This document shows, piece after piece, positions 1,750 to 63,690 of a DNA stretch of 64,000 nt (positions are counted from its first letter, which is position 1; each line of letters starts with the position of its first letter). Below the pieces are notes generated by a model. That model had not been told where the DNA came from. It made no database searches and saw nothing but the letters and a program-made list of their open reading frames with translations. Where the stretch lies: the NCBI GenBank assembly GCA_051294375.1, contig CM119271.1:16714470-16778469 (forward strand), written 5' to 3'. The stretch comes from Paraspadella gotoi (lineage: Eukaryota; Animalia; Chaetognatha). A program made the position numbers and the translations under genes.

Positions 1750-4700
1750 CTCACTCTCTTCTACTCGTCTTGAGGGCCGCGCCACGCCCACCGTCCAGAG
1801 AAGAGATAATATGGCAGAGTTGTGAGAACTTGTGGTCTCGTGCGTATATGAGTGCGCCTTCGAGTAGCTCGATGAGATCGATGTGCGTTCTGGCTTAGGA
1901 CCGATTCCAATGCGACAGAGACACATAGTGAATACTGTCAATGTGAAGCGTGCTGAAGTAGCGACTCGTGAAATTCGTATCTCGGTTGATTAGCGAATTC
2001 TCTGATCTCTCACTCATATCACTTCATGCTGGCAGAAGGATGTGGGGATTCGCGAGACTTGATTCTGAGTGTATGCGTGATTGCGATTGACATATATCGT
2101 CCACCCATTTTAGCTCTTTAATGTGATCAGATCACATATGATGATGTGCATTTTTTGCGATAAATTGTACGTTCGACTCGCAAGAGACGGATTTTATCGT
2201 GATTCTTGATTTTTAGTGTTGACCTTGATTAATGCTGAGACACAAAGTTGAAAATTCTTCAATAATGTTGTGCGACCATCAAATTGCTTCTCGGTGGTGT
2301 TATTGATCGCAGACTATGAGTGTATACCACGGAATGAAGTCGAAAATCACTAGCATAGAACACCAGTGAGGTGTATGTATGGCCTCTCCAACCGATTGCT
2401 GGGTCTAGAATCTCATCTTGATTAATATTTTCATTAGCCTCGATCTCGATATATTGTAGTATATGGATTATTCTGTGCAGCTAGTCTGTAAAGAGAAACA
2501 TTGAGAATTAGCAGATACATGATGGTGTAGGGGAGACCATAACGATGGAACGGTCTGCATAGGAGACGAGGGCGTTCTTTTGCCCCCGCGCGACCAACAG
2601 CGGCCGTCGCGGTGCCCCTTACGGCAGAGCCAGAAGACGCGCTGCAAATTAGAGAGGAAGAGGTGGCGGGGGAGAGGGAGGGATGATTGGTCGGGGATTG
2701 CCGGGGATTGGCCGGGGAAGATGGTAAGAAGAAGAAGGGAAGTTGATGGTAGGAATTCTTTCTTTCAACTAATGTTTGAGCAAACAATGTCGGATCTGCC
2801 ACGGATCATTAGCGGTAATTAGATTAATTATATTAATTTGATTCTGAAATGTTTGTGTTTTTTAGCGTCTTTTTGTCAAGAACCACTACAAAGGCAATTG
2901 ACGACGACGACAATTAATTCCGATAACGATTTGATTGATTGAATAATTTAATTAAGAGATAAATAAATGATGAATAACTAATTTATAGATATTAATAATT
3001 GATTGATTGAATAAATAAATAAATAATTGATTAATTGACTTGATTAATTAATTATTGATTGTAATTTAATTGACTAATTGATTAATTAACTGTAGAGGAT
3101 CAATTATAATGTATTGTTATGTGTTTAGTTGACAGAAACTGTTCAATATAAGCAGTCCCTGAGCTTTTGGATCAGGCGTAACACCATGTAACAGGCAGGT
3201 TAAGCGCCCCGTCCCTTCTTAACTGTCGTTGGCGACCACCGGGCTAGAACCCCTCCAGCACAATGGCCGCTGATGAACGGTTGGGGATTTTTGTCCACCA
3301 TAACTGATTTAATTATTGATTAATTATACATCTTGTATTGTATATTTATATAAAAAGAAATGAAGCATAGATCAATTAGTGAAACAGGTTGTTTTGTTTT
3401 TTCCATATAAACTCTATTGCTCACCCAGACGATTTCCATTCGAAACTTGATTTCCAGTTCTTAATCACAATTACTTTCCTACTCACATTAAAAATATTTC
3501 AAGTCAATATTTAACCAAAAAATTTAAAAAATTTCCAAATTTAAGATTAAATGGGTGTTTAGGGAAATAAACAGAATAAAAAAAAAAAGACCCCAATGTT
3601 CCCCTTTAATCAACCTGCAAAATCGGAGGTTTCTGGATGCCCCATTGGCCTGAGAGACCAATCTATTACTAGCGATCCGGAGTCTGAAGAAGTCACGATA
3701 GTAAAAGAATGATCCCGATTGAGACTAAACCGAAAAGAAGTCACCCTATGACGCCTGCGTAAAGAAGTCATTTAGGGCGGAACCACATCTTCTTCGGGGG
3801 ACCAGGCAAGATAGAGCGATGTGAAGCTGTGATTTGTGATTTGTGGGTGATGAGTAGTTCGTAGTGTGAACTGTGTATGAAGAATTGCTTCAATCAGATT
3901 ATTACGAATTCATGGCATTCATAATTAATTAAATGCTATCCTTGCTCTACTTGGGTTTAAGACCTCCATCATCTCTTACATAATGATTATGAAATCAGCA
4001 GGGCCTAGGTCCCTGCAAGCTTTTCAATCATAGACTCTCGTCACAGTTCTCGTTATTCCACTCTCTGAATGCCTGCTTTTCCCTATCAATGAAGATGATA
4101 TAATATTTCAAGGAAAACTCCCTTCAAGTATTGATTGGCGTATAAGTGTAATGTTACTCGGCACTTGCTCAAAATACTAAAGTTATTAGAAATGTTATGT
4201 TAATTTGCCTGAGTAAAATTGGAATGTGAATATCTCAAGGCCAGAGAACGTTGGGACAGTTATAAAGGGAATATATAATGAAAAGAGGAGTCTGACAGAT
4301 TTAGAGAGTTTGAAATTGACAGAGAGACTACGACGACTTACTTTTATATGTATCAAGTATGAAATAATAATAATGATCTAATACTTAATACTTTCGTACA
4401 ATAAAAACATTCTTTGAAACTTTACACAGCTTCATTGATTGGAAAGCCAGGTACTCTGGGAGAGAATAAATCGTGAGGGAGTCTTGATTGAAAACTTGCA
4501 GGGACCTGCAATGTCATTATCTTGTAAGAGTGATGGAGGCCTTTAACCCCCAAAGCCTGTCCAAAGTCAGGGGAAAGATAGCTTATTTATTGAATGAATG
4601 TATAATTTTTAATTTTGTATAATGATTACTTATTTCAGCGTATTTAAATCAGAAGAAGGGAGAGAAAGAGAAAGAAAGACAGGATGGAGAAGAAAGAAGA

Positions 4701-5853
4701 GAATGAATAAAGAGATAGACAGATAGGATAGACAGATAGTAAGAATTGAGAAGAAAGAAGAGGAAATGAATAAAGAGATAGACTGATAGTAAAAATGATA
4801 GTTTTGAGATAGAGCAAGAAACGAGTTATGGTTTATGTCTCAGAGAGAAATTTTCTTCAATTCTTCTTTTGCTTTGAAGCCGGAGACAATTTTAAGGGAA
4901 GACGCAATTTCCGTCATTATTTTTATTATGCTTCTTCGTCGTCGTCGTTGTTGTCGTCGTCGTCGTCATTCTTGCCGTTATAATCATTGTCGAATGGTGG
5001 ACTAAAATCCACCAACCGTCCAGCAGCCATTGTTCGCAGGGCAAGTTCATCGCCTCCTCAACGGGTGTTCTTAGCCCGCGTCGTTCTCTGCAGTAAGACG
5101 CGGACGGGCGCGCTCTAACCCGCCCTGTTTTACAGCCTGATCCAAGGCAGACTGCTTATATTGAACGTTCCTGTCACCTAACTCATAACACATTATTACT
5201 GTCTATTCAGAAGTAATTCACGATATTTGTATGCAAGATTGCAGTATCTTTGTCGTTTTTGTCATTGTCATGTTATTGGAGTCAACGTCATTGTAATCAT
5301 TATTGTCATCGAAATTATAATCATCGTCATCGTCATTGAAACAGGCCATGTCGTAGACGTCTTAGTCATTGAAACAGGCCATGTCTTCGAAAGAAAACAA
5401 CGACGACGACGACGACGACGACGAAGCTGCTAACGCGGACCTAAATTTTGCCAACAAAAACCGTCGTGTGAATTTTCATTAGACTGATTGATTGATTGAT
5501 TGATTGATTAGACTGATCTTACCATTTATCATAATCAACCCAAACAAAAGTTTTCCGAAACATCTTTTCTATGCGCAGGCGATCTAGAAGGGAAGACAGG
5601 ATTAGCAGAAAGAAAAGAGAGCACAGACAGAAGAGAGATGAGAAGACAGAGAGAAGAGAGAGAGACAAGAAGAAGAGAGAAACAGGAGACGGAAGCGGGC
5701 GCGGCAACTCGCAAAATGGAGGCTAATAGAGTTCCGCGTGCGACTGGAAATGCGTTCGCAGCTGGGCCGGATGGGCCGGCCGTAGAGCAGGAGCACAGTG
5801 AACACGGTGGCCAGCAATTAGTTCCAGCAAACGTTCGTAGTAGCCTTAGTACG
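1750..5853 (-). CDS. Probable class A (rhodopsin-like) peptide GPCR, FMRFamide-receptor-like; frames broken by indels
   Basis: Motifs appear in the correct order across shifting frames: KATTNV..LLATVFTVLLLYG (TM2, exon from ctacag|5853), AKER..CRPFH (ERY..CxP after TM3, exon from ttgcag|2641), VIFDFIPWYTLIV (TM5), EIRISR..TVFTMC (TM6), NSAILSLLW (TM7). Sequence quality is poor and the TM1 exon was not located. Confidence 0.42.
2772..3560. mobile_element. Family B copy with nested family C
   Basis: gtttgagcaaacaatgtcggatctgcc start; shared core cagacgatttccattcgaaacttgatttccag. Confidence 0.6.
3150..3226 (-). ncRNA. Type-P5 twister ribozyme, family C
   Basis: Minus strand: CAGT-TAA-GAAGG-GA-CGGG-GCGCT-TAA-CCT-GC-[P3]-G-CCTGA-TCCA-AAA-GC-TCAGG-G-ACTG. 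Confidence 0.65.
4518..4580 (+). ncRNA. Type-P5 twister ribozyme, family A (slightly degenerate)
   Basis: tatcttgtaagagtgatggaggcctttaacccccaaagcctgtccaaagtcaggggaaagata; P2 and T2 altered. Confidence 0.62.
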
Positions 5854-8699: not shown

Positions 8700-9157
8700 G
8701 AGAGAGATAAAGAGAGGGAATGTCGCCTTAGAAACGAAGGTAAGGTGAAAAGGATTTGGGTGAGTAGGTTAACTCAATTGACTGAAAATTTATGGCATCA
8801 TTCCATCTCTCTTTCTTTTTTTTACTTTTTTCTTTAGTTCTTTTTTTCTCTTTCTTTCTTCTTTTATTTCAACCAGTCAATCTTCATAAATCCGATCGTA
8901 GTAAAGAGAGAATAAGAACCAAATAAAAAAAATTAAGTTTAATAGATACATGAAATTAGTACACCAAATATAAAAATTATCCATTTATTTAATAAATGAA
9001 CTATCTGACTTTGGTGACCTGACTTTGGTGGTTTAAGGCCTTCAACACTCTTACAAGAAAATAACTTTTCCGGACTCTGCATGGCGAAGTTTCAAAGTAT
9101 AGAAATCGATTCAAAGTAAAAATGTTCACAGTCGTGAAATTAGTAGCTCAGTAATTA

Positions 9158-10832: not shown

Positions 10833-11148
10833 TAATTTTCACACTGATAAAAACTATAAAAAAAGACCCCAAAATGTTTTCAGCTTCTTTAACGAAATTT
10901 TTTTTCCGTTTAAATAATTTTCGAATTTAGAAACAAAATGACGTCGATGTTTTTATTTTTGGGACTAAAGATGTCGCTTTATGTTTAACGTTTCAACTGA
11001 ACCTCTACACATTAGGGCACTATTTTCCTAAAGCGTTCCATTTCTGTTCCTACTCCTATTTTAAACATTAAATCTAACTCTAATATTTTACCAAATGCTG
11101 AACCCGATTCCTTATTCCCTTATTCCTTTATCCTAATATTTAATGTTA

Positions 11149-11311
11149 ATCAGGCTGTAACACCGTGTTACAGGCGGGTTAAGCGCCCCGTCCCTCTTAA
11201 CTGTTAAGCGACCACCGGGCTAGAACCCTGGACCTATGGGTTGGGAGGAAACTGACTTGCTTCCTGCTTCAATGGCCGCTGATGAACTGTTGGTGGATTT
11301 TTAATTCACCA
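11149..11311 (-). mobile_element. Interspersed repeat family C (multi-hairpin; twister truncated at P4)
   Basis: Related copies at 3100-3300, 4997-5200, 55539-55679 and 60400-60542; shared terminal hairpin GGTGGA..TCCACC. Confidence 0.75.
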
Positions 11312-20974: not shown

Positions 20975-23900
20975 CTGAAGAATATCAAATCGTACAATAA
21001 CTTATAAATAATAACTAATTATTTTTTTAATAACTTTTAAAATCAACCTTGTTTGCGCATCCTTTCCAATTGCAGTAACTGCGTTTCCTTCTCGACCCCG
21101 GTTCAATTTTTTCTTCCTATTTTCAAAACATTATAATTTAATTTAAAATTTATTTAATTTTGATTTGAGGTTTAAATAAATAATAAATGTCTTGAAATTA
21201 AAAAATAATATATTTATCAGAAATTCTACAATTCACAAAAATCATATTTTTTTGGTTCACATCCTCTCACCTCTTTTTCATCTTCGTCTCCCTTGTGATA
21301 AAGCCAAAGGACATAAGCGGTTTCCAACATCGACAAGACAATGAAAACCAGGGATACGACCATCCAGATATCCATGGCAACCATGTAAGCTACCTGAATG
21401 GGACAAAATTTAGATTTAGTGTTTATGCTTTAATTTAAGAATAAGTCCTTTCGCTATCCTAATATTTAATCAATCTTGAACAAATGTCACGACCAATCAA
21501 TCACATTCAATCATAATTTCAATGAAATAAAATACACCCACAATTAAGATCGAATCGAGCTAAATGAAATAAATTTCGAATAATCAAACAATCAATAACA
21601 ATCATTGACGATCAATCACAAACAATCACACTCAACCATGATAAATTTGAACTAATCACAATCAATCACCACCAATGACAATCAACCACATATTATAACA
21701 ATGAATGACAATCAATAACTATCGTTCACAATCAATCACCACCAATCAAAATCAATCAATCAATCAATCAACCAACGCTCCTCTTCACAAAAAACCTTAG
21801 GCGACGCCTCCTTGGCGGCGTTCATGAACCCGATGGACGAGACCAAGCAAAGAGCGCCGTGAATGACCCTCGCCGGCGCCGCTGAGGGACTCAACCAGAA
21901 TCCCAGCCAAGACAACGCCGTCGAGGCAAAAGAAGGAGCGAAGACGTTGAAGAGAAAAAATCCGATTTCTCTTTTGAAAGTGAATTTGGCGCCGATGCAG
22001 GTAAAGCGGCCTGGAACAGGTGCAGGGACAGGTGTAGGGAGACGCGTAGGGATGGGGGCAGGAACAGGTGACGGGACAGGTGCAGGGACAGGTGCAGGGA
22101 CAGGTGCAGAGACGATGGAGGGGATGGGAGACAATCACTGTTCCAATCAATTATTCAAATACTCAATTATTCATGTTATGAAATTGGTACAACCAATATA
22201 AAAATTATCCATTCATTTAATAAATAAGCTATCTTGCCCCTGACTTTGGACAGGCTTTGGTGGTTTAAGGCCTCCATCACTCTTACAAGATAATGACATA
22301 GCAGGTCCCTGCAAGCTTTCAATCAAGACTCTCTCACAGTCTCGCCTATTCACTCCCAGATTACCTGGCTTCCCTATCAATGAAGTGGAAAATATTTCAA
22401 AGAATGTTTCAATTGTATGAAAAGACCACTCCCTTAAGTATTAGATCGGGGAATACTTATTGTACTCCGCACTAGCATCAAAATACAAGTCAAGTCATCA
22501 AAATACATGTCATTGTATAATATACAATATACAATATTGGAACAGTGATTGTCTCCCATCCCCTCCATCGTCTCTGCACCTGTCCCTTCACCTGTCCCGT
22601 CACCTGTTCCTGCACCCATCCCTACGCATCTCCCTACACCTGTCCTTGCACCTGTATATTATATTATAATATATTATACAATGTATATTATGTTATGTCA
22701 TGTCCATAACTCCTTATAAAAGTTACAAGATTACTTGTTTTACAAAGAAAAATCTTTTTGAAATATCAGAAAATAAATTTATTATTAGTTATCATGGGAA
22801 AAGTTTTTTGAGGGTAGATAAATGGCTGAGATACCAAGTGTCTTTCTTTTTATTTTTTTTAGAGAATGGCGATAGTTAATTAACTATTAAAGTTGATGTT
22901 AAAGTTAATGTTAATTAAATTTAAGGTTAAAGTTGTAAAGTTGTTGTTGTTGTTGTTGTTCAGACCGCTAGGTCATATATACGTAATGAGGGTCTTGTCA
23001 CAGTTATAAATTTGGTTCTTGTCGCGGGTCATTGCAACAAGTTCACTTAGTCTACCCGGATGAAACCTTCAGTCGTAACTCAGTGGCTCATTGAAGGCGG
23101 AACAAGGTAAAAACTAAGAGTTCTGTCATATTAATAACGTTAGAGCATCCCTGTGGGATAACGAAATTTAAAAAAAAATTAAGATTTTATGTATAGTTAA
23201 TAACATAGAAGCATTTAAAGTTCATCGTATTACTATAAATCATGAAAATTTTATATTTCAAATTCAAAATTTTTAAAAACGGATTCGGGTAGAGCTTGAA
23301 AAAATAAATAAAAAATATTATTACAAGAATTCACAATTTTTATGTTTTATTGGTTAAAATTAGCAAAAACTATAAAAATTATGGTATGATGATGATGATG
23401 ATGATTTTTATTTGACCCACTTATCATCGAAATATTGAAAAACGCATTATACTTTGTGGGCTATCTGAATCCGTTCTAAAAATAAAATTTAAAAAAAAAA
23501 AATTTTATTGCCTATGCATTTATAAATATTTAAATACTTCAATGTTATACAGTGCTTCACTAGTTATAAAAGTGATTGTAAATATTTATTAAGTATATGA
23601 TGGACAAATGAATTTTATACGACAGAATTTCTAATGATAAAAAGGGATCAAATTTAACCCGCCTTATTTAGTAATACCATCAGCTAATGACCATAACGTA
23701 ACAGGATCGATCCCCAATTGTACCGCGATCGATCCCCAATGGTACCGAGATCGATCCCCAATTGTACTACGTTCGATCCCCAATTGTACCATGATCGATC
23801 CCCAATTGTACCGAGATCGATCCCCAATTGTACCAAGATAGATCCCCAATTTTAACGAGATCGATCCCAATTGTACCGCGAACAATCCCCAATTGTACCA

Positions 23901-26177
23901 AGATCAATCCCCAATTGTACCACGTTCGATCCTCAATGGTACCACAATCGATCCCCAATTGTACCGTGATCGATCACAAATTGTACCGAGATCGATCCCT
24001 ATTTGTACCAAGATCGATCCCCAATTGTACCAAGATCGATCCTTAATTGTACCGCGATCCATTCCCGATGGTACCGCGATCGATCCCCAATGGTACCAAG
24101 ATCGATCCCTAATTGTACCGAGATCGATCCTCAATTGTACCGAGATCGATCCCTAATTGTACCAAGATTGATCCCCAATTGTACCGTGATCGATCCCCAA
24201 TTTTACCGTGATCAATCCCCAATGGTACCGGGATCGATCCCCAATTGTACCATGTTCGATCCCCAATGGTACTGCGATCGATCACCAATTGTAGCGCAAT
24301 TGATCCCCAATGGTACCGCGATCGATCCTCAATAGTACCGAGATTGATCCCCAATTGTACCACGTTCGATCCCCAATGGTACCGCGATCGATCCCCAATT
24401 GTACTGCGATCGATCAGCAATTGTACCAAGATCGATCCCCAATTTTACCGTGATCGATCCCCAATGGTACCGAGATCGATTCCCAATTGTACCGCGACCG
24501 ATACCCAATTGTACCGATATCGATCCCCAATGGTACCTACCCTACCTAAGCGTGAGGACACCCATTAACCACATTTGGGTTGAGGATAAACCCTCCGGTC
24601 GCAATTTCTTTCTTTTTTTTATTAACATAAACATTAACAAAAAACAGATTACGTCTTCTTGAACTCCTCCTGGTCCTGGGCTTGAAACCAGGCCGGGTGA
24701 ACTCTTTACAATGCCGACTACGTTTATAAGGTAATAAATACCCACATTTAAATTCATCTATACTAATTTGTACCTGTAGTATTGTAGCTCTTAGTACATT
24801 CTATTGTTTCAACATTGTCCAGCACGTGAGATGGGAAAGTCGTTTCTTCACGTACTTGCACAGGGTCTTCATCCGGGAATCGAAACACAACGTCATCCAT
24901 GTTGTAACCGTAAGATTCCATTTCAATTCCACATTTCTGTTACATTAAACGGTTTTGTCAGTTGAAGAATCACAGGTATATAATCAAAAGTATAATTTTG
25001 TTATAATTTATGTGAGATTTTACTTGTGAGTCAAATGGAAACATTGACAATTCCATTGAGCAAGATAAAGTCAAGGTGAACCTTTGACTGAGCAAAACTT
25101 CTCCGGTTCCTTTGATTCGAATGTATGTGTTTGGCTAATTAACAAAATTAACAAAATATGGAAATTCAAAAAAGCATCTTCAGTTTGCTATAAAATTTTT
25201 TAAAACAATAAAATTTTCAGAACGATTTTTTACATGGGTAACAATTTTCATACCATTTTCATACCTCCCTCTATTTTTTCCTATAAATTTCACAAAGAAA
25301 CCTGAGTGATTTTGTGAAGATTTCCTCGTTTTTCGTTTGAGAAAAACAAATCTGAATACCAGATTTTGTCCACGGATTTTGGAGGAACAATTATTGGTTT
25401 TGGATGCGTGTGTTCCAGCCTAGCGTCAACCCATTTTTGCCTAGAGAAAATTAGTTAATATATAACTAAAAACTTAAAATTTTAATTGCATATCTGTAGT
25501 CATTTGGTTAAATAAAACTCGTTTGTAAACAAAAACAAACTGGTTTAGTTCTAAAATTCTAACTAAAATTATTAAATTCTAATCTAACTCTCGAAAGTCC
25601 TAATGAGAAACTAAATCTGATCCGAATACTAACCTCGCACTTAATTTAAGTTTTGAATTAAATTCAATTATAATTTGAATTTATAAAAAGGTTTAAGTTA
25701 AAAGACCTCAAGAAAATGTCCATAGTGAATTCCATATTCGATTCTGAGATTGAATTCATGGAAGAAATAAAGAAATTGATGTTGACCGTGACTGGACGCG
25801 ATCCTTCGTTTGGACGAACACGAGCGTCGTAGATGCGCGGGTCTTGAACGTCAAAAATACGAGGCGAGGATTTAATTTTTATTTTATTTTATATCATATT
25901 AAATTTTTATTGGGTGAACGATTTTATTAAGCTAAAAAAATCATTGATCGGTTTTTGAAAGATTCATCAAAACAACCGTTGGATGAATTTATAGATTTGT
26001 TTATTTGTTTATTTATTTGTTTATTTGTTTACTTTTCATTAATTAAATTATTTATTATTTATTGACGACCATTGTGAACATACCGAGAATAGAATTCATG
26101 ATCTTTGTCGATTTTGATATTGAGGCTTCGCTCGGAGACGAAACAAAAAAGAAAACGAGAAAAAACAGCGGCGTCAT
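20873..26177 (-). CDS. Glycine-receptor-like Cys-loop ligand-gated anion channel subunit, 9 exons, 383 aa
   Basis: Exons 26177-26084, 25842-25707, 25440-25302, 25134-25024, 24936-24774, 22010-21796, 21393-21271, 21116-21048, 20974-20873. All introns are GT-AG with matching phases; total 1152 nt with no internal stop. Protein has a signal peptide (MTPLFFLVFFFVSSPSEA), YDARVRPN, DIFLRQKW, WYSDLFFSNEK, Cys-loop CSMELSMFPFDSQKC, second disulfide CTKSYNTTGRFTC, M1, the PAR anion motif, M3 (AMDIWM) and M4 (DVLSRILIP...FYW). Collinear with vertebrate GlyR alpha as recalled. Confidence 0.95.
21048..21116 (-). CDS. GlyR-like exon 8 (short M3-M4 loop)
   Basis: EEKIEPGSRRKRSYCNWKGCANK; aaatag| acceptor, |gttgat donor, phase 0/0. 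Confidence 0.75.
21271..21393 (-). CDS. GlyR-like exon 7 (M3)
   Basis: VAYMVAMDIWMVVSLVFIVLSMLETAYVLWLYHKGDEDEKE; attcag| acceptor, |gtgaga donor. Confidence 0.95.
21796..22010 (-). CDS. GlyR-like exon 6 (M1-M2)
   Basis: GRFTCIGAKFTFKREIGFFLFNVFAPSFASTALSWLGFWLSPSAAPARVIHGALCLVSSIGFMNAAKEASPK; 215 nt, with boundaries at the positions recalled for the vertebrate GlyR M1-M2 exon. Confidence 0.95.
22183..22460 (-). mobile_element. Interspersed repeat family A (~280 bp, twister-bearing, SINE/retrozyme-like)
   Basis: Related copies at ~3930-4130, 4375-4600, 8955-9060, 47820-48025; partial copies at 52820-52930 and 54400-54500. Confidence 0.8.
22230..22292 (-). ncRNA. Type-P5 twister ribozyme, family A (intact)
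   Basis: Minus strand: TATCTTGT-AA-GAGT-GA-TGGA-GGCCT-TAA-ACC-AC-CAAA-G-CCTG-TCCA-AA-GT-CAGG-G-GCAAGATA. P5 8 bp, P4 4 bp, T1 TGGA/TCCA, T2 AC/GT, conserved UAA and GA; predicted cut 22267/22266. Confidence 0.8.
23198..23548. mobile_element. Diverged foldback / MITE-like element in GlyR intron 5
   Basis: taacatagaagcatttaaa / tttaaatacttcaatgtta and aacggattcgggtag / ctatctgaatccgtt. Confidence 0.55.
23704..24538 (+). repeat. 22-bp minisatellite GATCGATCCCCAATTGTACCGA, ~38 units, in GlyR intron 5 (mirror 38500-39330)
   Basis: Unit read directly from the sequence. Confidence 0.95.
24774..24936 (-). CDS. GlyR-like exon 5 (loops B/F/C)
   Basis: KCGIEMESYGYNMDDVVFRFPDEDPVQVREETTFPSHVLDNVETIECTKSYNTTG; taacag| acceptor, |gtacaa donor. 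Confidence 0.95.
25024..25134 (-). CDS. GlyR-like exon 4 (loop E, first half of Cys-loop)
   Basis: PNTYIRIKGTGEVLLSQRFTLTLSCSMELSMFPFDSQ; aattag| acceptor, |gtaaaa donor. Confidence 0.95.
25302..25440 (-). CDS. GlyR-like exon 3 (loops D/A)
   Basis: QKWVDARLEHTHPKPIIVPPKSVDKIWYSDLFFSNEKRGNLHKITQ; ctctag| acceptor, |gtttct donor. Confidence 0.93.
25707..25842 (-). CDS. GlyR-like exon 2
   Basis: DPRIYDARVRPNEGSRPVTVNINFFISSMNSISESNMEFTMDIFLR; ttcaag| acceptor, |gtcttt donor. Confidence 0.92.
26084..26177 (-). CDS. GlyR-like exon 1 (signal peptide)
   Basis: ATG at 26177, MTPLFFLVFFFVSSPSEASISKSTKIMNSIL, donor G|gtatgt. Confidence 0.85.
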
Positions 26178-28827: not shown

Positions 28828-29377
28828 GGAAAAGAGAGAAGATACAAGATACAATGAAAGAAGTGTCGCTTGAAAAAAAAAGGAAAAAAAGACATGAAAA
28901 TGAAAAATATGAAAAAATAATAAAAAAGAAAAAAAAGAAAAGAAAAGAAAGGAAAGGAAGAGACAAAAATAGAAAAGAAAAGAAAACGAAGAAAATGGAA
29001 AATTCCAAAAAGAAGAAACAGCCTCAAGAGATAAATGATTGGCTTGAGTAACATTTCTTTTTTCTTTCAAATGCGAATTGGATGATGAATATAAAGTGAA
29101 TGGTTTAATGAGATGGAGGATTGGGTGAGTAGTTAACGGTTAAACAAAAAACTGATGATTCATTCATAAATAATTGATTGATAGATAGATTGAATAATTT
29201 GTTTAATGATTGACTTATTAAATGATAACTTGACTAATTCAAAGACTGATTTATCTGTTTTTATTGATTGGTTGATTGTTTGTATGATTTATTAGTTATT
29301 TATTATTCAATAGATCGANNNNNNNNNNNNNNNNNNNNNNNNNTCGCTTAATTCATTTTTGGGTAGATTGGTTGGAC

Positions 29378-31040
29378 AGGGGGGAGAAAGTAAGTCTAGG
29401 GCAGGGGGAAAAGTGGGCGAGGGCAGGGGGGAAAATGGGCTTAATGGCAGGGGGGAAAGTTTTGGCAAGGGCAAGGGGGAAGTGGGTTAAGGGGAGGGGG
29501 GGAGAAGTGGGCAAGGTCAGGCGGAGAAGTGGGTAAGGGAGGGGAGGAAGTGGGCTAGGGCAGGGGAGGAAAGTGGGCAGGGTAGGGGGAAAGTGGGCTA
29601 GGGCAAGGGAAGAAGTGGGCTAAGGCAGGGTGAGGAAGAGGGCTAGGGCAGGGGAAAAGTGGGCTAGGGCAGGGGGAAAAGTCGGCTAAGGGCAGAGAGA
29701 AGAATGGGTAAGGGCAGGGGAGTTAAGTGGGCTAGGGCCAGGGGGAGAAGTTCGGTAAGGGCATGGGAGGAAGTGGGCTAGGACAGGGGGAAAGTTTTGG
29801 CAAGGGCAGGGGGAAGTGGGCTAGGGCAGGGGGAAAAGTGGGTAAGGGCAGGGAGGAAGTGGGGCTAGGAGCAAGAGGAGAAATGGGCTAGGGCAGAAGA
29901 GGAAGTGGGGCTGAGCAGAGGAGGAGTGGGCTAGGGCAGAGGAGGAAGTGGGCTAGAAGCAGAGAGGAAGTGGGCTAGGCAGAGGAAGGAAAGTGGGCTA
30001 GAGCAGAGGAGGAAGTGGGCTAGAGCAGAGGAGGAAGTGGGCTAAGCAGAAGGAGGAAGTTTGGCTAGGCAGAGGAGGAAGTGGGCTAAGAGCAAGAGGA
30101 GGAAGTGGCTAGGGCAGAGGAGAAGTGGGCTAGAGCCAAAAAAAAAAAGAAGGGAGGATGTGGGTCTAGGGCAAGAGAGGAAGTTGGGCTAGGGCAAAGG
30201 AGGAAGTGGGCTAAGGGAGAGGAGGAAGTGGGGGGCTAGGGCAAAGAGAAGGAAGTGGGCTAAGAGGCAGAGGAGAAAGTGGGCTGGGCAGAGGAGGAAG
30301 TGGGCTAGGGCAGAGGAGAAGTGGGGCTAGGGCAAGAGAGGAAGCTGGCTAGCAGAGAGGAAGTGGGCTAAGGGCAGAAGGAAGGAAGTGTGCTAGAGCA
30401 GAGAGGAAGTGGGCTAGGGCCAGAAGAGGAAGTGGAGATGAGGGCAAGGCAGAGCGAAGTGGCTAGAAGCAGAGGAGGAAGTGGGCTAGGGCAAGGAGGA
30501 ATGGGCTGAGCAAAGGAGGAAGTGCGGCATAGGGCAAAGAGGAGAGTGGGCTAGGCAGAGGAGAAGTGGAGCAGGAAGGTAGAGCGGCGAGGAGGCAGGA
30601 AGTTGGCAGAAGAGAAAGGCTAGGGCAGAGGAGGAAGCTGGCATGAGAGAGGAACCAGAGAGAGGAAGTGGCTAGGGCAGAAGAAGGGTAAGCTAGGAGA
30701 CTGGCATGCAGGGAGGGAAGGGGCTAGGGCAGAGAGGATGAAGTGGCTAGTGCCTAGGAGAAGGGCTAAGCAGAGGAGGAAAGTGGGCTAGGCAGAGGAG
30801 GAATGGGCTAGGGCAGAGGAAGGAAGTGGCCAGAGGCAGAGGAGGAAGTGGTAGGCAGCGAGGAGAAGTGGGCTAGGGGCAAGGGAAGGAAGGGCTAGGG
30901 CCGAAGAAAGAAGTGGGCTAGAAGCAGAGGAAGGAAAGGGCTAGGCGTGGGGCTAGGCAGAGGAGAAAGTGGGCTAGGGCAGAGGAGAAGTGGAGGCGAG
31001 GAGCAAAGGGCAAGTGGGCAGGAGAGGGAGAGTGGGACTG
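29378..31040 (+). repeat. ~22-bp G-rich minisatellite GGGCTAGGGCAGAGGAGGAAGT (mirror 32080-33695)
   Basis: Unit read directly; G-tracts are longer at the left end. Confidence 0.95.
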
Positions 31041-47320: not shown

Positions 47321-47819
47321 GGGAAAAGGCCTTGGCGCCGCACGAGAGCGAGGCTGGGAGTCCTCGTCGTTGTTGTTGTTCTCGATCTTGGTATTATTTT
47401 GTCGTTGTTGTCCGGTTGTTGTTGTTGTTGTCGTGGATGTCGTCGTCTTCTTTTTCGATGTCATCGTCTAAGCGTCNNNNNNNNNNGAGAGATAAAGACA
47501 AAGAGACAGAGACAGAGAGAGTGATAGAAAAAGTGAGAGAAAGATAGAGAAAGAAAGACAGAGAGACAGATACAGAGAGAGTGAGAGAAAGAGAGAGTGA
47601 GAGAAAGAGAGAGACAGTGACAGAGAGAAAGAAGGAGACATTCCGCTTAATGGAAGTTTTCTCTTCCAGTGAAAAATATTTCCAAGTTTCCGTCGACTTG
47701 TTGTTGTTGTTGTTGTTGTTGTTAATTTTCGTTTTTTGATTTTGTTGCTTTTAGTTTCAATACTTTGTTTTTTCTTTTCTTTTATACACTTTATATTTTA
47801 TGACTATTTTTAGCTATTA

Positions 47820-48025
47820 AATTAATACAACCAATAAAAAATTATACATTTATTCAATAAACGAGCTATCTTGCCCCTGACTTTGGACAGGCTTTGGTGG
47901 TTTAAAGCCTCCATCACTCTTACAAGATAATGACATAGCAGGTCCCTGCAAGCTTTCAATCAAGACTCTTTCACAGTCTCGTTTATTCACTCCTAGAGTA
48001 CCTGACTTCCCTATTAATGAAGTGG
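47820..48025 (-). mobile_element. Family A copy
   Basis: Near-identical to 22183-22387. Confidence 0.8.
47867..47929 (-). ncRNA. Type-P5 twister ribozyme, family A (intact)
   Basis: Same as 22230-22292 except the linker is GGCTT. Confidence 0.78.
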
Positions 48026-48102
48026 TTTAATATTTATTTATTTATATAATTTATTTTTATTTGCTATTTGTTATTTTTTTTCTAATTTTAAGAGCAGAAA
48101 GA

Positions 48103-48649
48103 AACAAGTTTGAGAAAACAATGTCGGATCTGCCCACGATCATTAGCAATAATTAATTAATAAATTAATAAATAAATTAATAAATTAATTAATTTTTGTC
48201 ACTGACCACAACAAAAGCGACGACGACAATAATGCCGATAACGATTGACTTGATTGATTGATTGATTAAGTAATTAATTAATTGATAAATAAATTGATTG
48301 AATAATTTATTTTTAGATAAATAATTGATTGATTTAATAATTAATTGAGTTATTTATTGACTGATTAATTAATTATTGATTAATTAATTGAATAATTTAT
48401 TAAATAACTGAATAATTACTTGATTAATTAATACATCTTGTATTTACATTTAATATAAAAAGAAAAAGAAGCTTAATCAATTAGTGAAACAGGTGTTTTG
48501 TCTTTTTCCATTTAAACTCATTTCCACTCAGACGATTCCATCGAAACTTGATTTCCAGTTTAATCACACACTTTTCTACGAACATACAAAATTTCATTCC
48601 AATTCATCCATCCAATCACGAGTAATTGGAATTTTTTGCTAAAGGACGA

Positions 48650-49640: not shown

Positions 49641-50048
49641 GGCGCCGCAACAAATGCGATAATGACGTCGTTTGTGACGTCAACGTTAAACCCTAAAAAT
49701 GTCGTCTTCATCGTCGTCGTTTTCGTCGTCGTTGTTATCGTCTTCGTTGTCGTTTTAATCTTCATTGTCGTTATCGTCGTCATTGTCGTCTTTCTAATTT
49801 TATCACCACAATGTCACAAATCACAAATCAATTAATCTCTTTATAAATACAAATGAATCATTGATTGAAATTTAATAAGATAGTTTTTTAGTCGTATCTG
49901 CTTATCAGCAGATTCCGACTTTATAATTCACTTTTGTCGGTCCGTCGGTCCCACCCCAAAATCTTGTCGGTAAATCATTTTTATCATATCAGAAACTCGA
50001 ATTATGATAAATTATGCAAAAAAAATGATGTCTGTGTGTCCGTCCATC

Positions 50049-50573
50049 TGTAGTCGGGTATTGCCTAGGTTCACCCCGCCTAAAAGCATGACACCTGGTT
50101 CCAAGCCCAGGACCCGTTACATGGCTGCTAGAGGGGGTTAAAGAAGTTGCGGATATACACTCTTTAGCCCCACTTAACGCCTTTCCACACTGGAGAGCCC
50201 ATCCTGTCAAGCGTATTCCAACATTCTGATTCCAGGCCCAATGACTTGCTGAAGATTGCTCCCCTCCCTCCACTGGAAGCAGTGCGGGGTGGGTTACAAT
50301 CTGGGGGGCATGTAGTCGGGCATTGATTAGGTTCACCCCGCCTTAATGCATGACACATTCAGACCACAAAGTACTGGGTTCAATCCCAACCTAGTACCTA
50401 CCCTGCGGGAAGCGTGAGGATGGCCGTAAGCCGCCTTGGGGGCGTGGAAAACACTCATGCCTGGTTCCAAGCCCAGGACCCGTTCCATGGCTGCTAGAGG
50501 GGTTTAAAGAAGTTGCGGATAGCACTCTTCTGCCCCACTTAGCCCATCCTGTCGATCGTATTCCAACCTTCTG
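50049..50573 (+). mobile_element. Tandem partial dimer of family D (retrozyme-like, unit ~360 nt)
   Basis: Direct repeats start tgtagtcggg at 50049 and 50311. The first unit lacks ~100 nt including the 5' half of the twister. Diverged fragments at 24534-24601 (+) and 24652-24724 (-). Confidence 0.7.
50405..50483 (+). ncRNA. Type-P5 twister ribozyme, family D (with P3)
   Basis: GCGGG-AA-GCGT-GA-GGAT-GGCCG-TAA-GCC-GC-[P3]-G-CCTGG-TTCC-AA-GC-CCAGG-A-CCCGT; predicted cut 50427/50428. Confidence 0.75.
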
Positions 50574-51083
50574 TACAAATGAAATGAGTTTTAATGGAAA
50601 AAAAAACAAAAAAATATATTTCCTTATTTGAACGCCAATTACTCATAAGTGGACGGGGCGATTGACTTGAAATTTTCTATGTGGGTAGGAAAAGTGTATG
50701 ATTAAACTGGAAATCAAGTTTCGATGGAATCGTCTGAGTGGAAATGAGTTTAAATGGAAAAAACAAAAAACAAGATATATTATGCAAGATGTATTAATTA
50801 ATCAAAAAATTAATCAGTTAATTAATCAATTAATCAATTAATCAATCATTTAATTATTCAATCAATCAATTTATTTAGTTATCTATTAATTAATTTTTCA
50901 ATCAATAAATTTAATTATTTAATCAATAAATCAATCAATCAAGTCAATCGTTATCGGCATTATTGTCGTCGTCGCCATCATCGTCGTCGTTGCTTTTGTC
51001 ATTGTCAGTGACGAAAAGACCTCAAACTTGTTAGTATTAGATTCCATCGGACGATCATCGTCATCATCATCATCGTCATCATC

Positions 51084-53967: not shown

Positions 53968-54742
53968 CTTTCTCTCTGCTCTCTCTACTTCTCTCCTCTC
54001 TCTCTTCTTTCCCTCTCTCTCTCCTCTCTTCTCTATCCTCTCTCTAATCTCTCCTCTCCTCTCTCTCCTCTCTCTCTGCCTCTCTGCCTCTCTCTGCTCT
54101 CTCTCTCTTCCTCTCTCTCTCTCCTCTCTCCTCTCTGCTCTCCTCTCCTTCTCTCTCCCTCTCTCTCTCTCTCTCTCTTGACCGCCAAAGAGACAAACAG
54201 CCCAAAGCCACGCCTCTCTCCCCTTTGAGGTCGCAGGAGTCGGTTTACAAGTTGCTCACATCTTAAAGTTTCACTAAAAATTATTGTCAACTTCTCTTAA
54301 CATTTATTTCTCTATTTAGTGAATTATTTTCTTTCTCTCTTGAATTTATGCTTCTGATCCGTCAATCAATTTTTTTCAATTGATTAAATATTAAATATTA
54401 AATTATCAATTATCTTGCCCCTGACTTTGGACGTGTTAAAGCTTTCATTCCTCTTTCAAGTAGTAGGACTCTTTCAAGCTTTTGCAAGCTTTTCGATCAT
54501 TATAGGAAGTCTCGAAATCCAGAAAGATGGAATCAAATGGAATCGAATGGAACCGCACCGAAATGGAATCAAGCTTGAAAATAGTTATTTAAAGTCCGAT
54601 TGGATTATGTTGTATACTTTTATTTTGACACTTGAAACTATTTAATTAATTAATTAATTTCTTTCTTTACTTTTCTGACTGATAATTCTTAAACTCTACC
54701 AAGGTCCTTGCAAGTAGTTTTTCTTAAACTGACCGGTCGCCA
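51545..54742 (+). repeat. Tandem direct duplication, ~1.5 kb (51545-53180 and 53240-54742)
   Basis: Same sequence twice, differing mostly by indels. Confidence 0.9.
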
Positions 54743-54809: not shown

Positions 54810-55538
54810 CTCCTTTATCTCTCTCTCTCTCTCTCTCTTCTTTTCTCTTTCCCACAAAGAAAGTAAAATCACACCTTGTCATCCACCTTTCTCCTCCTCC
54901 TCCTCCTCCTCCTCCTCCCTCCTTTTTTTCCTTTCCTTTCCTTTCCTTTTCCTTTCCTTTCCTCTCCTTTCCTTTCCTTTCCTTTCTTTTCCTCTCCTCC
55001 CTTTTTCTTTCCTCAGATTGATCACCAAACCGGCTGCCGAATTCGTACCCAAGTATTTTTCCATCGCGTCCTTGGGTCCAACCGAATTTTTTTTTATCCC
55101 CAATTCATATCACCAGTTTATATCCCCGTTTTATTCTCATTTTATCTCATCGTTTTTATTATCCGCAACACAAGGACAAAAATGCGTTTAACTCGGGTAA
55201 TTTTTCATCAATTTGGTTAATATTTGGTATAAAATAAGATCTTTAATTTGTACTTGTGAAGTTATATATAAGTTATATATAAGTTATATTATCACATTAA
55301 AGAGCGATCTCATGATTCTAGAAACGAAATCGGATCAACGAGGCATCGGCCAATAAGCAGATGGGCTTCCTTTCGCCTGTTAATTTTACCCTTACCTCCG
55401 ATCCGATGGAACCGTATAAAAGAGAACCCGAAATTGTATTGATTCACTCTGCCCAAAAAAAATGACACCGTTTTGTATTATCGTTTATTTTTCTGAAGAA
55501 ATAAAATCCACTTTGGTTTCGCCTAGAAATCCCTGTAG

Positions 55539-55679
55539 GGTGGACTAAAATCCACCAACCGTTCATCAGCGGTCATTGGTGCCGGAGGAAAGTCATTCGC
55601 CTCCCAACCCAAAGGTGCGCCAAGCAGTTAAGAGGGACGGGGCGCTTAACCCGCCTGTAACACGGTGTTACAGCCTGAT
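55539..55679 (+). mobile_element. Family C copy
   Basis: ggtggactaaaatccacc...aagcagttaagagggacggggcgcttaacccgcctgtaacacggtgttacagcctgat. Confidence 0.75.
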
Positions 55680-56496
55680 TTCTACTGGTACGATTCCATT
55701 GAAACTTGATTTACACTTGATTTCCACTGGTACGATTCCATTGAAACTTGATTTCCAGCATAATCACCTTCTTCTCGATCATATGATCAATTGTCCCGTC
55801 CACACATGAGTAATTGGCGTTAAAAGCCAAGGTCGGACGGACGGACGGACGGATTGACGGCTGGACGGACGAACTGATATCAATTTGATCATAATTCCAA
55901 GATCTGACAAGCTTTTGTGCTGGGACCGACCGATTAAAAACGAAATTCCGATGCAGTGCATGTAATAAATCATGTGATCACCCGGAAATATATGTGAAAA
56001 AAAGTCTGTGGCACAACAGACTTTGGGATTTCCCTTCTTGTGTTTTTACGGTTTTTATGTTCAGGTTTAAGGAAAATGAACTTTTTTGGTGCGGAGGAGA
56101 AAGTAATACGAGGCACAAACTTGTTGGCGTAGAGCCAACGCCATATTGGCAAGAGGCCAACAGGCCAACAGGCCGAATGAACACGTAGAGAAAAGCAGGC
56201 CACGGGGCTGATTGTACAATGAACAAGCATTGCAGAAGGACAAAGCCAATAAAGACAATGAAAACAACAGCTTCAATAAAGAGCACGACGACAATAATAA
56301 CGACGACGACAAGGACGAGGACAACAACGACTACAACGACGACGACGACAACGACAACGACAACGACGACAACGACAACGACGACAACGACAACGACGAC
56401 AACGACGACGACCTCTTAAACTGAAGAATCGTCTCCCTTGTTTTTATCAGGTGATAAAATCTGGAGAAAGAGAAGGGAAAATAATAGGCCGTTCGC

Positions 56497-56838
56497 GCGG
56501 TGCCAGATTGCGGTGCCAGATTGTGAAGTCAGATTGAGGAGCCAGATTGTGAAGTCAGATTGGCAAGCAAGATTTCAGGGCCAGATTGCGGATTCAGATT
56601 ACGGTGCCAGATTGCGGTGCCATATTACGTTGCCAGATTGCGGATTCAGATTACGGTGCCAGATTGCGGTGCAAGATTGCGAAGTAAAATTGTGGAGCTA
56701 GATTGCAGTGGCAGATTGCAAAGCCAGATTGCGGTGCCATATTACGGTGCCAGATTGCAGAGCCAGATTGCAGAGCCATATTGCAGAGCCCGATTGCAGT
56801 CAAAGATTGCGAAGCCATTCTGATTCGGTCAGATTGCT
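56497..56838 (+). repeat. 13-bp minisatellite GCCAGATTGCGGT (mirror 58990-59290)
   Basis: Unit read directly from the sequence. Confidence 0.9.
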
Positions 56839-56995
56839 TCAAATTAAGTCGCNNNNNNNNNNNNNNNNNNNNNNNNNTAAACTGCGGCGCTAAACCTTTG
56901 CGGACCTGAGTTGAGGAAGCGCAGTCCTTTGCATTCATCGTCGTTATTATGATAAACGCAATCTTTGGATGCTGGAGGGCTTGTCTCTGTCGTGA

Positions 56996-58441: not shown

Positions 58442-61312
58442 GAGAGAGGAGAGAGAAAAAGAAAGAGAGAAGAAAGAGAGAGAGAGAGATGGAGGAGAGA
58501 GAGACGCCATGCGTTTTCCGCAGTCGAAATGTCGGCGATTCCAAATGTTGTTTTAGTGATTTTTAATGAGACAAATAAACGGAAAAAAAAGAGACGATGA
58601 AGTCTTAAAAAGAGATGGGAGGGAGAGAGAGAGAGGGAGAAGGGAGAAGAGAGGGAATGTAGAGAAGAGAGAAAGAGCAGGGAGGAGGTAGAGGAGAGTA
58701 AGAAAATGGAGGAGAAGCGGCATGAGATAAAAGAGGGCGGGGAAGACAGCTCTCTCGTTCTCTCTCTTCTCCTCTCTCTTCTCTCTCTCCTCTCTCTCTC
58801 TCTCTCTACTCTCTCTCTTCTCGTCTCTTCACAGACAGAGACAAGCGCCTTCCAGCATCAAAAGATGCGTTTATCCATAAATAACGACGATGATGCAAAA
58901 GGACTGCGTTCCTCAACTCAGGTTCCGCAAAGTGTTTAGCGCCGGCAGTTTAGCGACTTAATTTGAAGCCAATCTGAACCGAAATCAGAATGGCTTCGCA
59001 ATCTTTACGGCAATCTGGCTCTGCAATCTGGCTTGCAATCTGACTTCTGCAATCTGGCAGCCGCAAATATGGCATCACAATCTGGCTTTGGCAAATCTGC
59101 CACTGCAATCTAGCTCCACAATTTTACTTCGTAATCTTGCACCGCAATCTGGCACCGTATCTGATCGCAATCCTGGCAACGTAATCTGGCACCGTAGCAA
59201 TCTGCTACCCTAATCTGAATCCGAATCTGGCCCAGAAATCTTGCTTGCCAATCTGACTTCACAAATCTGGCACCGCAATCTGGCACCGCGCGAACGGGCT
59301 ATTAATTTTCGCCCATTTCTCTTTCTCCCAATTTTATCACCTGATAAAAACAAGGGAGACGTTCTTCAAGTTTAAGAGGTCGTCGTCGTTGTCGTGTCGT
59401 CGTTGTCGTTGTCGTTGTTGTCGTAGTTGTCGTTGTCGTCGTTGTGTTGTCGTCGTCGTTGGTCGTTGGGTTTCCCCCGTCGGGTCGTCCCCCCCGTTTT
59501 GGTTCCCGGCCCGGGTCCGTCGGGTGTGTCCGGGGGTCCCCGTTCCCCGTTCCCCGTTTGTCGTCGTTGTCGTCGTCGTCGTTGTTGTTGTCGTCGTTGT
59601 CGTTGTCGTCGTTGTCGTTGTCGTTGTCCGTTGTCGTCGTTGTCGTGCGTCGTTGTCGTCGTCGTCGTTGTTGTTGTCGTCTTGTTGTCGTGGTTGTCGT
59701 TGTCTGTCGTTGTCGTCCGTCGTCGCTGTTGTCGTCGTCGTTGTAGTCGTTGTTGTCTTCGTCTTCGTGCGTCGTCGTTATTATTGTCGCCGTGCTCTTT
59801 ATTGAAGCTGTTGGTTTTCATTGTATTATTGGCTTTGTCCTTCTGCAATGCTTGTTCATTGTAACAAATCAGCCCGCGTGGCCATGCTTTTCTTCTACGC
59901 GTTCATTCCGCCTGTTGGCCTCTTGCGCATATGGCGTTGGCTCTAACGCCAAATAAGTTTGTGCCTCGTATTACTTTCTCTCCGCAAACCAAAAAGTTCA
60001 TTTTCCTTAACCTGAACATAAAACCGTAAACACAAGAAAGGGAAATCCAAAAGTCAAGTTTGTGCCACAGACTTTTTTTAACTTATATCTCCGGGTGATC
60101 ACATGATTTATTACATGCACTGCATCGAATTTCGTTTTTTAATCGGTCGGTCCCACCACAAAAGCTTGTCAGATCTGGAATTATGAATCAAATTGATATC
60201 AGTTCGTCGCGTCCAGCGTCATCCGTCCGTCCGTCCGTCCGACCTTGGCTTTTTAACGCCAATTACTCATGTGTGGACGGGACATATTGATCATATGATC
60301 GAGAAGAAGGTGAATTATGCTGGAAATCAAGTTTCAATGGAAATCGTACCAGTGGAAATCAAGTGTAAATCAAGTTTCAATGGAATCGTACCAGTAGAAA
60401 TCAGGCTTGTAACAACCATGTTAGCAGGCGGGTTAAGCGCCCCCTCCCTCTTAACTGCTAGCGCCCTTTGGGTTGGGAGGCGAATGACTTTCCTACGCAC
60501 CAATGACCGCTTGATGAACGGTTGGTGGATTTTAAGTCCACCTACAGGGATTTCTAGGCGGAAAGCAAAGTGGATTTTATTTCTTCAGAAAAATAAAAGC
60601 GATAATACAAAACGGTTCATTTTTTTGGGCAAGAGTGAAATGCAATACATTTCGGGTTCTCTTTTATACGGTTCCATCGGTAAGGGTAAAATTTACAGGC
60701 GAGGAAGCTCTTCTGCTTTTTGGCCGATGCCTCGTTGATCCGATTCGTTCTAGAATGCATGAGATCGCTTTTTAATGTGATAATATAACTTATGATGAAT
60801 TGGTAGGCAACCAATATATATATATATACTTATATATAACTTCAGAAGTAGCAAAATTAAAAGATCTTATTTTATAGCCAAATATGAACCAAATTGAATG
60901 AAAAATTACCCGAGTTAAACGCAATTTTTGTCCTTGTGTTGCGGATTATAAAAATTGTAAAGCCAGATTGGGATAAAACGATGAATAAAATGAGAATAAA
61001 ACGGTTTGATAAAAACTGCTGATATGTTCTGGGGATAAAAAAAAATTCCGTTGGACCAAAGGACGCGAATGGAAAAATACTTGGGTAGCGAAATTCGGGC
61101 AGCCGGTTTGGTGATCAATGCTGAGGAAAGAAAAAGAGAGGAAAGGAAAGGAAAGGAAGGAAAGGAAGAAAGGAAAGGAAAGGAAAGGAAAGGAAAGGAA
61201 AAGAAAGGAAAAGAAAGGAAAGGAGGAGGAGGAGGAGAGGAGGAGAAAAGGTTGGATGAAGGTGGTGTTTACTTTCTTCGTTTGGGAATAGAAAAGAGAG
61301 AAGAAGTAGAGA

Positions 61313-62999: not shown

Positions 63000-63690
63000 T
63001 TCTTTTCATTAAACCATTTCCACTGGTAGTTTCCACTGACTTAATTCAAGCTTCGTCATACTTTTCCCTACCACAACCAAATTTCAACTCAATTATCCAT
63101 CCAATTATGATTAATTGAGTATTATTGGTTAAAATAGTAAAGTATTTTCAGTGAAATTCGACTATGTTTTTTCCTTTACTAATTTCCACTCACACGATTC
63201 CAGTCGAAATTTTATTCACTTAATCACACACTTCCTACCACACCACAAATTTAATTCAATCCAACCAGCCAATACGAGTTATTGGAGCCTTTTTGCTAAA
63301 GATGGGTCGGATGACGGATTGATTGACTATTAATTATTATTGTTAATTATGTTTACTATAATTGATTCTAATTAACTGATTAATTATTTTGATTTTTATA
63401 CATCTGCAGATCATTTAATATAAAGGAAAAGAAGCATAATCAATTAGTAAACAGTTTTGTTTTTTTTCATTAAACTCATTTCCACTCAAACTATCCAGTC
63501 GAACTTGATTTCCTGTTATCACACATTTCCTACCCGCTACAATTCCAGGTCATCAGCCCAATCCTCTCATGAGCATTTGGTGTTCATCATAGTGAATATA
63601 TTTTTTTTGTTTTTTCCATTTTAACTCATTTCCACTCGGACGATTCCATCGAAACTTACATATCCAGCCTCAATTCCACACTACCTATCC
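63000..63690. mobile_element. Family B core, several partial tandem copies (matching left end at 61423-61530)
   Basis: Repeated actcatttccactc..cgattccatcgaaact blocks. Confidence 0.55.

Follow-up and report, generated by a model that had tools for sequence, protein, structure and literature searches.

Conserved twister-like fold in three families of short elements

A stretch of 64,000 nucleotides from the chaetognath Paraspadella gotoi (assembly GCA_051294375.1, contig CM119271.1, positions 16,714,470 to 16,778,469; hereafter the window) contains three families of short repeats, here called A, C and D, that share a twister-like ribozyme core in type-P5 strand order, in which a self-complementary 6-mer occupies the place of the P1 stem. 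At a probability of about 0.5, we read these families as abundant short non-coding elements that are passengers of Naiad Penelope-like elements (PLEs) and whose predicted palindrome-P1 twister would be cut best as a domain-swapped dimer. The parts of this reading differ in strength. The conserved twister-type fold is almost certainly real in all three families. Judging from its sequence features, the fold is also predicted with good confidence to cleave itself. Mobilization by Naiad elements is likely, again as judged from sequence, and enhancement of cleavage by dimer formation, predicted by analogy, is somewhat favored.

A twister in P5 order had been proposed for A, C and D by the initial annotation; it was recovered here in two ways for A and D. 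A generic descriptor, which left the P1 slot free at 2-31 nt, did not require a palindrome and accepted P2 strands of 3 or 4 nt, matched the window three times, with the catalytic G at 22278 and 47915 on the minus strand and at 50416 on the plus strand. In 200 dinucleotide shuffles the mean number of matches was 0.02 (4 of 200 shuffles with one match), and none of these matches had a 6-nt palindromic slot; the 3-nt P2 option had been added after the copies in the window were seen, so this comparison is not fully blind. The Rfam model Twister-P5 (RF02684; gathering threshold 37.6 bits) served as an independent model and was the top Rfam model on both the A and the D stretch. It matched 22239-22281 on the minus strand with 25.8 bits (E 0.0036 for a 701-nt stretch and 0.32 for the window as a whole), drawing the P1 of family A as AGG/CCU with a 0-nt loop, and the D stretch with 15.4 bits (E 0.94).

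Against Twister-P5 the core has a single parse: P5, AA, a 4-nt P2' strand, GA, a three-base T1', the 6-nt slot, UAA, a 3-nt P2 strand, T2, a C..G pair closing P3, P4, and the loop U-NNN-AA-GY (L4). The termini lie in P5, and the strand order P2'-GA-T1'-P1-NAA-P2-T2-P3-P4-L4 is that of type P5. The UAA cut site and the catalytic GA are conserved, a damaged A copy at 4518 being restored by contig letters (see below); the T1 (3 bp) and T2 (2 bp) pseudoknots with L4 are present, and P4 has 4-5 bp in every complete copy. T1 had first been described as four pairs. That parse was off by one; T1 is 3 bp and the palindrome a 6-mer. The version with four T1 pairs and a slot of 5 nt was rejected; its fourth pair takes the U of L4 and is not kept across families. 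A shifted register that gives a 4-nt P2 breaks pairs and was likewise discarded.

The pairings vary in a compensatory manner across the families, as the initial annotation had noted. T1 reads UGG/CCA in A, GGA/UCC in D and CGG/CCG in C; T2 is AC/GU or GC/GC; the first P2 pair is A-U, G.U or C-G; and the fifth P4 pair is G-C or A-U. Contigs of public runs (X1, X4, X6 and others) were aligned to the window copies and their letters scored as share of depth, and these letters improve the pairing; X6, X12 and X13 may be RNA runs, which is a guess. The contig letter changes given below for A/C and for D are among the matches listed, so invariance of the slot among copies is not claimed; contig depth is no measure of copy number, for which reason the families are called abundant only.

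A self-complementary 6-mer in the P1 position

The slot reads AGGCCU in A, CGGCCG in D and GGCGCU in C. The proposal that a palindrome has replaced P1 thus holds in that the hairpin is lost and the slot is self-complementary; the palindrome is a 6-mer and not the tetramer first described. The slots differ at four of six positions and all self-pair, with an outer pair of A-U, C-G or G.U and an inner G-C changed to C-G. Among all 6-mers, perfect palindromes make up 1.6%, and 5.3% self-pair when wobble is allowed. The self-duplexes are predicted at -9.1 (AGGCCU), -10.7 (CGGCCG) and -8.3 (GGCGCU) kcal/mol, and one pair closing a tetraloop within the slot at +4.1 to +5.6 kcal/mol. Minimum free energy folding recovered P5 and not the pseudoknotted core, and the gains on cofolding are mostly the loss of loop penalties; accordingly, neither calculation is used as evidence.

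Slots of this length were searched for elsewhere. Phage P5-order twisters were collected as a control: in 25 of the 64 parts of IMG/VR, 66 of 121 loci passed the pairing filters, representing 64 distinct sites; their slots are 12-30 nt long and hold a hairpin of at least three pairs in 63. Because P2 is set to TGCN in the patterns used for phages, this survey does not sample all P5 twisters and is silent on P2 length. The form with a 6-nt slot and a 3-nt P2 gave 121 viral loci in 4 of the 64 parts, the best with 7 of 10 pairs, and a narrow pattern run on the whole collection gave 11 loci, none complete. Narrow patterns for canonical-P2 twisters with 4-10-nt slots returned five viral and four prokaryote loci and no true example: two loci (L266 and L267) that resembled 6-nt-slot P5 forms are tandem type-P1 duplicates, a third (L264) is a 20-nt slot read in another register, and the remaining loci have no T1 pairing in the short register. 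In metagenomes, a strict pattern found no locus and a looser one found 21, none with full pairing.

Two arrangements of phage twisters came up in these surveys. In the phage contigs L266 and L267 (~60-175), a tandem pair of near-identical type-P1 twisters is spaced by about 51 nt, and both members have a weak P1. In L202 (1-1720), L219 and L220, also from phages, two to four type-P5 twisters are clustered at distances of a few hundred bases.

Copies of the three families in the window

Seven places had been named by the initial annotation, and all hold the motif or part of it; the C copies near 55622 and 11150 are halves, and the A copy at 4518 and the C copy at 3150 are damaged.

The family A core at 22230-22292 on the minus strand, detected by the descriptor and as a partial Rfam match, consists of the P5 arms, AA, P2' GAGU, T1' UGG, the slot AGGCCU (22268-22273, minus strand), UAA, P2 ACC, T2 AC/GU, a C-AAA-G in place of P3, P4 CCUG/CAGG and L4 U-CCA-AA-GU. 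By the twister consensus, its predicted cut would fall between U22267 and A22266. The core belongs to an insertion at 22148-22535 (minus strand; homology to other copies at 22177-22447) that lies in sense orientation within one intron of a gene for a Cys-loop channel and is flanked by inverted repeat arms of 132 nt (22016-22147 and 22536-22655). These inverted repeats may derive from a Penelope-type inverted copy that brought flanking sequence along, or from a small foldback element that served as target.

Another A core, at 47867-47929 (minus strand; element 47815-48035; catalytic G 47915), has the slot AGGCUU, in which one C>U is compatible with wobble pairing. The damaged copy at 4518-4580 (plus strand; element 4375-4620) has UUA at the cut site and a T2 mismatch; contigs read A at 4544 and 4549 (98% and 97% of depth, X1), which restores UAA and T2. 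Three relics, all on the minus strand, complete the family: 3954-4115, which ends just past UAA; 8950-9081, degenerate with the slot AGGCCU kept; and 54411-54460, degenerate. The copies of family A have variable 5' ends and a common 3' end. The A and C copies at 3060-4680 are covered by 8668 X1 contigs, and over A the summed depth exceeds that of neighboring sequence by about four orders of magnitude. Family A was also present in runs of two organisms coded B (2 contigs) and C (1 contig).

The D core (50405-50483, plus strand; catalytic G 50416) was found by both the descriptor and Rfam. It has T1 GGA/UCC, T2 GC/GC, a P3 hairpin and P4 CCUGG/CCAGG. Its slot at 50421-50426 is UGGCCG in the window and CGGCCG in contigs, where the change T>C at 50421 accounts for 95% (X1), 96% (X6) and 99% (X4) of depth and makes the palindrome perfect. 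Contig letters at 50453 and 50458 (98% and 99%, X1) complete an 8-bp P3, a minor change at 50430 (10%) turns a G.U into an A-U pair, and the bulged position 50413 varies among contigs. On D there were 4521 X1 contigs; run X13 gave nothing, which does not establish absence.

D forms a partial tandem at 50049-50573 (plus strand) with the 6-bp duplication TCTGTA at 50047 and 50570. Its unit is about 366 nt long; the first copy (50049-50228) is without the 5' half of the ribozyme, and the second unit starts at 50311. A tRNA-like B box lies at 50377-50387 (plus strand), upstream of the ribozyme, and an A-box-like stretch is found in the loose ends of D contigs and is deleted in the window copy; both are read as candidate boxes from the general box consensus. 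ARAGORN found no tRNA. Within the unit, the tRNA-like boxes (50311-50400) follow a leader of about 45 nt and stand just 5' of the ribozyme.

The family C core (3153-3225, minus strand; catalytic G 3213) has T1' CGG, the slot GGCGCU (3208-3203), T2 GC/GC, a P3 hairpin and P4 CCUGA/UCAGG; L4 is damaged in the window copy. This copy has a T1 mismatch and one extra A, and contigs restore it. In 12 loose ends of X6 contigs the loop reads U-CCG-AA-GC (agreement 0.95), giving T1 CGG/CCG; 126 X1 loose ends are noisier (agreement 0.70), with 3167 T>C at about half of depth. Runs X10 and X12 gave nothing for C, and this does not establish its absence there. The whole element of 208 nt (3093-3300, minus strand), with the 5' end TGGTGGAC, sits in an AT-rich repeat, X, and has a 6-bp duplication TAACTG (3087 and 3301) that was confirmed against an empty-like site at 48404.

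The partial C copies at 55536-55680 (plus strand) and 11148-11310 (minus strand) are independent copies, and both stop, at 55680 and 11148, just past the 5' strand of P4. The junction at 55680 resembles a short word of repeat X. A copy at 60399-60542 (minus strand), with a candidate motif at 60446, was rejected as independent, being the fold-back mirror of the copy at 55622, and a degenerate C copy lies at 4994-5196 (plus strand).

Likeness to Naiad tails and to known ribozymes

Naiad PLEs have been reported to be without a hammerhead ribozyme, whose part the predicted twister would probably play. Comparisons with Naiad records were made by eye and across species. In supplement S5 of PMC8557442, the same core occurs in the tails of Naiad_Mgal, Bpla, Mphi, Scon and Mmer, that is, in at least 5 of 54 families. 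These five tails have AA-GNGN-GA, a 3-nt P2 strand, T2 AC/GU or CC/GG and P4 CCUG/CAGG or CC(C)G/CGG(G); T1 comprises three pairs in two tails and, in the other three, two pairs together with a U.U, and the slot of 20-23 nt consists of two palindromes. A/C/D agree with these bivalve tails in AA-GNGN-GA before T1', the 3-nt P2 strand, the C..G pair closing P3, P4 CCUG/CAGG or CCG/CGG, a palindromic slot and a position near the 3' end. In contrast to the Naiad tails, they have a single 6-mer as slot, are non-coding and measure about 200-500 nt. In at least 14 Naiad records (30 of 35 places viewed) a TGGTGGA-like word occurs close to the 5' start, and family C has such a word at its 5' end.

Naiads are further marked by 5' truncation, an inverted 5' copy and AT-rich or (TA)n targets. 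The variable 5' ends of A, the inverted repeats flanking one A copy and the location of C and D in AT-rich repeat with 6-bp duplications may or may not correspond to these traits. Of the partial tandems that form pseudo-LTRs in Naiads, D offers an instance, and the window copies of A and C stand alone. The exact A/C/D family motifs are absent as ribozymes from supplement S5, no twister was seen in the last ~600 characters of the crab record Naiad_Ppla, and the word twister does not occur in the main text of PMC8557442. The families are non-coding and have no open reading frame with GIY-YIG and reverse transcriptase; they are therefore not Naiads themselves and would at most be non-autonomous partners. 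The initial suggestion of a non-autonomous retroelement context is supported, in part by the Naiad consensus sequences. Separately, the Naiad_Ppla tail has, by eye, hammerhead-core words in reversed order, with GAAA before CUGANGA.

With type-P5 twisters (RF02684; PMC5408937, PMC10085705) the core shares strand order, UAA, GA, a 3-bp T1, a 2-bp T2, P4, L4 U-NNN-AA-GY and an optional P3, whereas it has no P1 hairpin, a P2 5' strand of 3 instead of 4 nt and a score below gathering. On account of P1, P2 and this score, A/C/D are filed as a twister variant and not as members of RF02684. The nearest published forms are the T-variant twisters that Schistosoma carries in its RTE element Perere-3 (PMC8501958), which are likewise natural, retroelement-borne and weak in or without P1; unlike A/C/D, they lie at the 5' end and form P1 partly from the target duplication, and the available portion of that paper notes no palindrome.

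Rfam scans of the window matched no hammerhead; with a twister-like fold instead, the families are not non-LTR (long terminal repeat) retrozymes as defined. Retrozymes consist of tandem units of 170-400 nt; D has a unit of ~366 nt in a partial tandem, and the other families are solo, so that the comparison is ambiguous. Animal retrozymes are described as non-autonomous PLE derivatives (bioRxiv 10.64898/2026.07.22.740005), with no mention of twister in the portion available. A literature search with most subscription papers outside its scope found no twister in PLEs and no palindrome-dimer twister. What the window contributes is the minimal slot of a single 6-mer, its occurrence in three independent non-autonomous families and the contig-level support for the palindrome.

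Proposed dimeric cleavage and alternative explanations

In the proposed dimer, two palindromes would pair into a single P1 helix of 6 bp common to both copies, and each copy would contribute its 5' half (P5, P2', GA, T1') to complete the 3' half of its partner (UAA, P2, T2, P4, L4). Cleavage would take place at U|AA by twister G/A chemistry. The partners could be neighbors on one partial-tandem transcript or a pair of abundant RNAs, and cleavage would release unit-length, possibly circularizable RNA for reverse transcription; lone copies in host introns would be cut weakly. A precedent is offered by the minimal type-I hammerheads of PLEs and amphibian non-LTR retrozymes, which have a palindromic stem-III loop and cleave as dimers (PMC6765202, PMC7229834). 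A/C/D resemble them in a helix of about one pair with a palindromic loop, in the predicted double ribozyme and in short, non-autonomous partial tandems. They differ in ribozyme class, which is unrelated, and in that stem III matters for hammerhead cleavage whereas twister P1 is dispensable.

Several observations weigh against this reading, together with those named below for the alternatives. P2 has three pairs and a bulge in all three families instead of four pairs; according to the review PMC5408937, having more or fewer P2 pairs might disturb the active site, although a large twister screen found P2 imperfections tolerated (PMC11662667). The best Rfam score, 25.8 bits, stays below the gathering threshold, and the C copy at 3150 gave no Rfam twister match. 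Covariation comes from only three independent families. Family A is mostly solo, with tandem-like joints in single contigs only. Of 428 frame fragments of at least 55 aa in the window, 151 passed a complexity and duplication filter and 150 of these 151 were compared with Pfam: no transposon protein was found, including reverse transcriptase and GIY-YIG, so that the link to Naiads depends on motifs compared by eye.

The alternative that survives best, though on balance unlikely, is a twister active as a monomer, in which the 6-nt slot is a short linker and the palindrome pairs template RNAs or tunes the rate only. The form may indeed be monomer-active, since published twisters cleave without P1: twisters lacking P1 cleave at near wild-type rate (PMC5408937), and in a screen that covered 1948 natural twisters, imperfections of P1 made no difference (PMC11662667). 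With P1 dispensable in the twisters tested, dimerization may not be needed. The bacterial hatchet ribozyme, of another class, also forms strand-swapped dimers driven by a palindrome that is not needed for its catalysis (PMC7357161), and the A copies, as said, are mostly solo. A monomer loop, however, does not need the inner four bases to stay self-complementary through the double change from GGCC to GCGC, and the one-pair hairpin is predicted to be unfavorable, as given above; moreover, the P1-less constructs described had free ends and no 6-nt covalent tether.

Considerably less probable is a twister-derived fold that does not cut alone and acts as a protein-binding or dimerization signal, or is active only with an element protein bound. 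The short P2 and missing P1 would fit this, and the hammerhead of a Poseidon PLE required protein for cutting and was not needed when insertion took place in vitro (PMC11167929). Furthermore, the ends of the A/C/D elements do not coincide with the predicted cut. Such a fold does not account for UAA, GA, the AA-GY of L4, T1 and T2 all being kept in three diverged families, nor for GA and NAA being kept in five Naiad tails.

Slightly less probable still are elements with the ribozyme as described that are SINE-like (short interspersed nuclear element) passengers of other retroelements, for example LINEs (long interspersed nuclear elements) of the RTE type. The tRNA-like promoter boxes of D, the 6-bp target duplications, the tie between twisters and Perere-3 (PMC8501958) and the lack of a Naiad protein among the 150 fragments compared would all agree with this. 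Against it, the Schistosoma twisters have the 5' position and target-derived P1 described above, and the elements agree with Naiad tails in their 3-nt P2 strand, in a P4 of CCUG/CAGG and in the palindromes, family C moreover starting with the Naiad 5' motif. Finally, chance alignment or assembly artefact is very improbable: the assembly is rich in indels and fold-back duplications and the Rfam scores are below threshold, yet shuffled windows gave 0.02 matches, none of the 121 loose viral matches exceeds 7 of 10 pairs, and contigs of public runs hold the families and improve their pairing.

Genomic setting

The window consists of animal DNA rich in repeats; it contains microsatellites, N gaps and two long fold-back duplications, 23624-31374/31697-39412 and 54718-57472/58348-61429, whose arms have 83-89% identity and many indels; both are probably read or assembly artefacts. 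The Cys-loop ligand-gated ion channel gene (Pfam PF02931, PF02932) is represented by exon fragments on the minus strand at 25667-25888, 24766-24939, ~21790-21985 and 21229-21429. Minisatellite arrays of 22 and 13 nt lie at 23559-24600, 29344-31040 and 56472-56850. The AT-rich repeat family X occupies 2774-3508, 48108-48629, 50581-50975, 55709-55825 and 63165-63670; it surrounds or adjoins the insertions of C at 3150 and 55622 and of D, and a target preference is possible.

Implications

A bolder version of the dimeric reading, which we advance tentatively and at less than even odds, is a natural class of dimer-gated twisters, in which Naiads and thousands of passengers would have exchanged the dimeric hammerhead found in other PLEs for a twister that converged on the palindrome trick; only tandem or abundant element RNA would be cut, and lone intronic copies would spare the host transcript. 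If true, this would provide a twister form that the Rfam threshold has missed despite its abundance in an animal genome, and a twister gated in this way would serve as an RNA part that senses concentration. Two unrelated ribozyme classes would have converged on palindrome-mediated dimer cleavage in one group of retroelements, and it would be explained how Naiads thrive without canonical hammerheads, a gap that was left open by those who described them.

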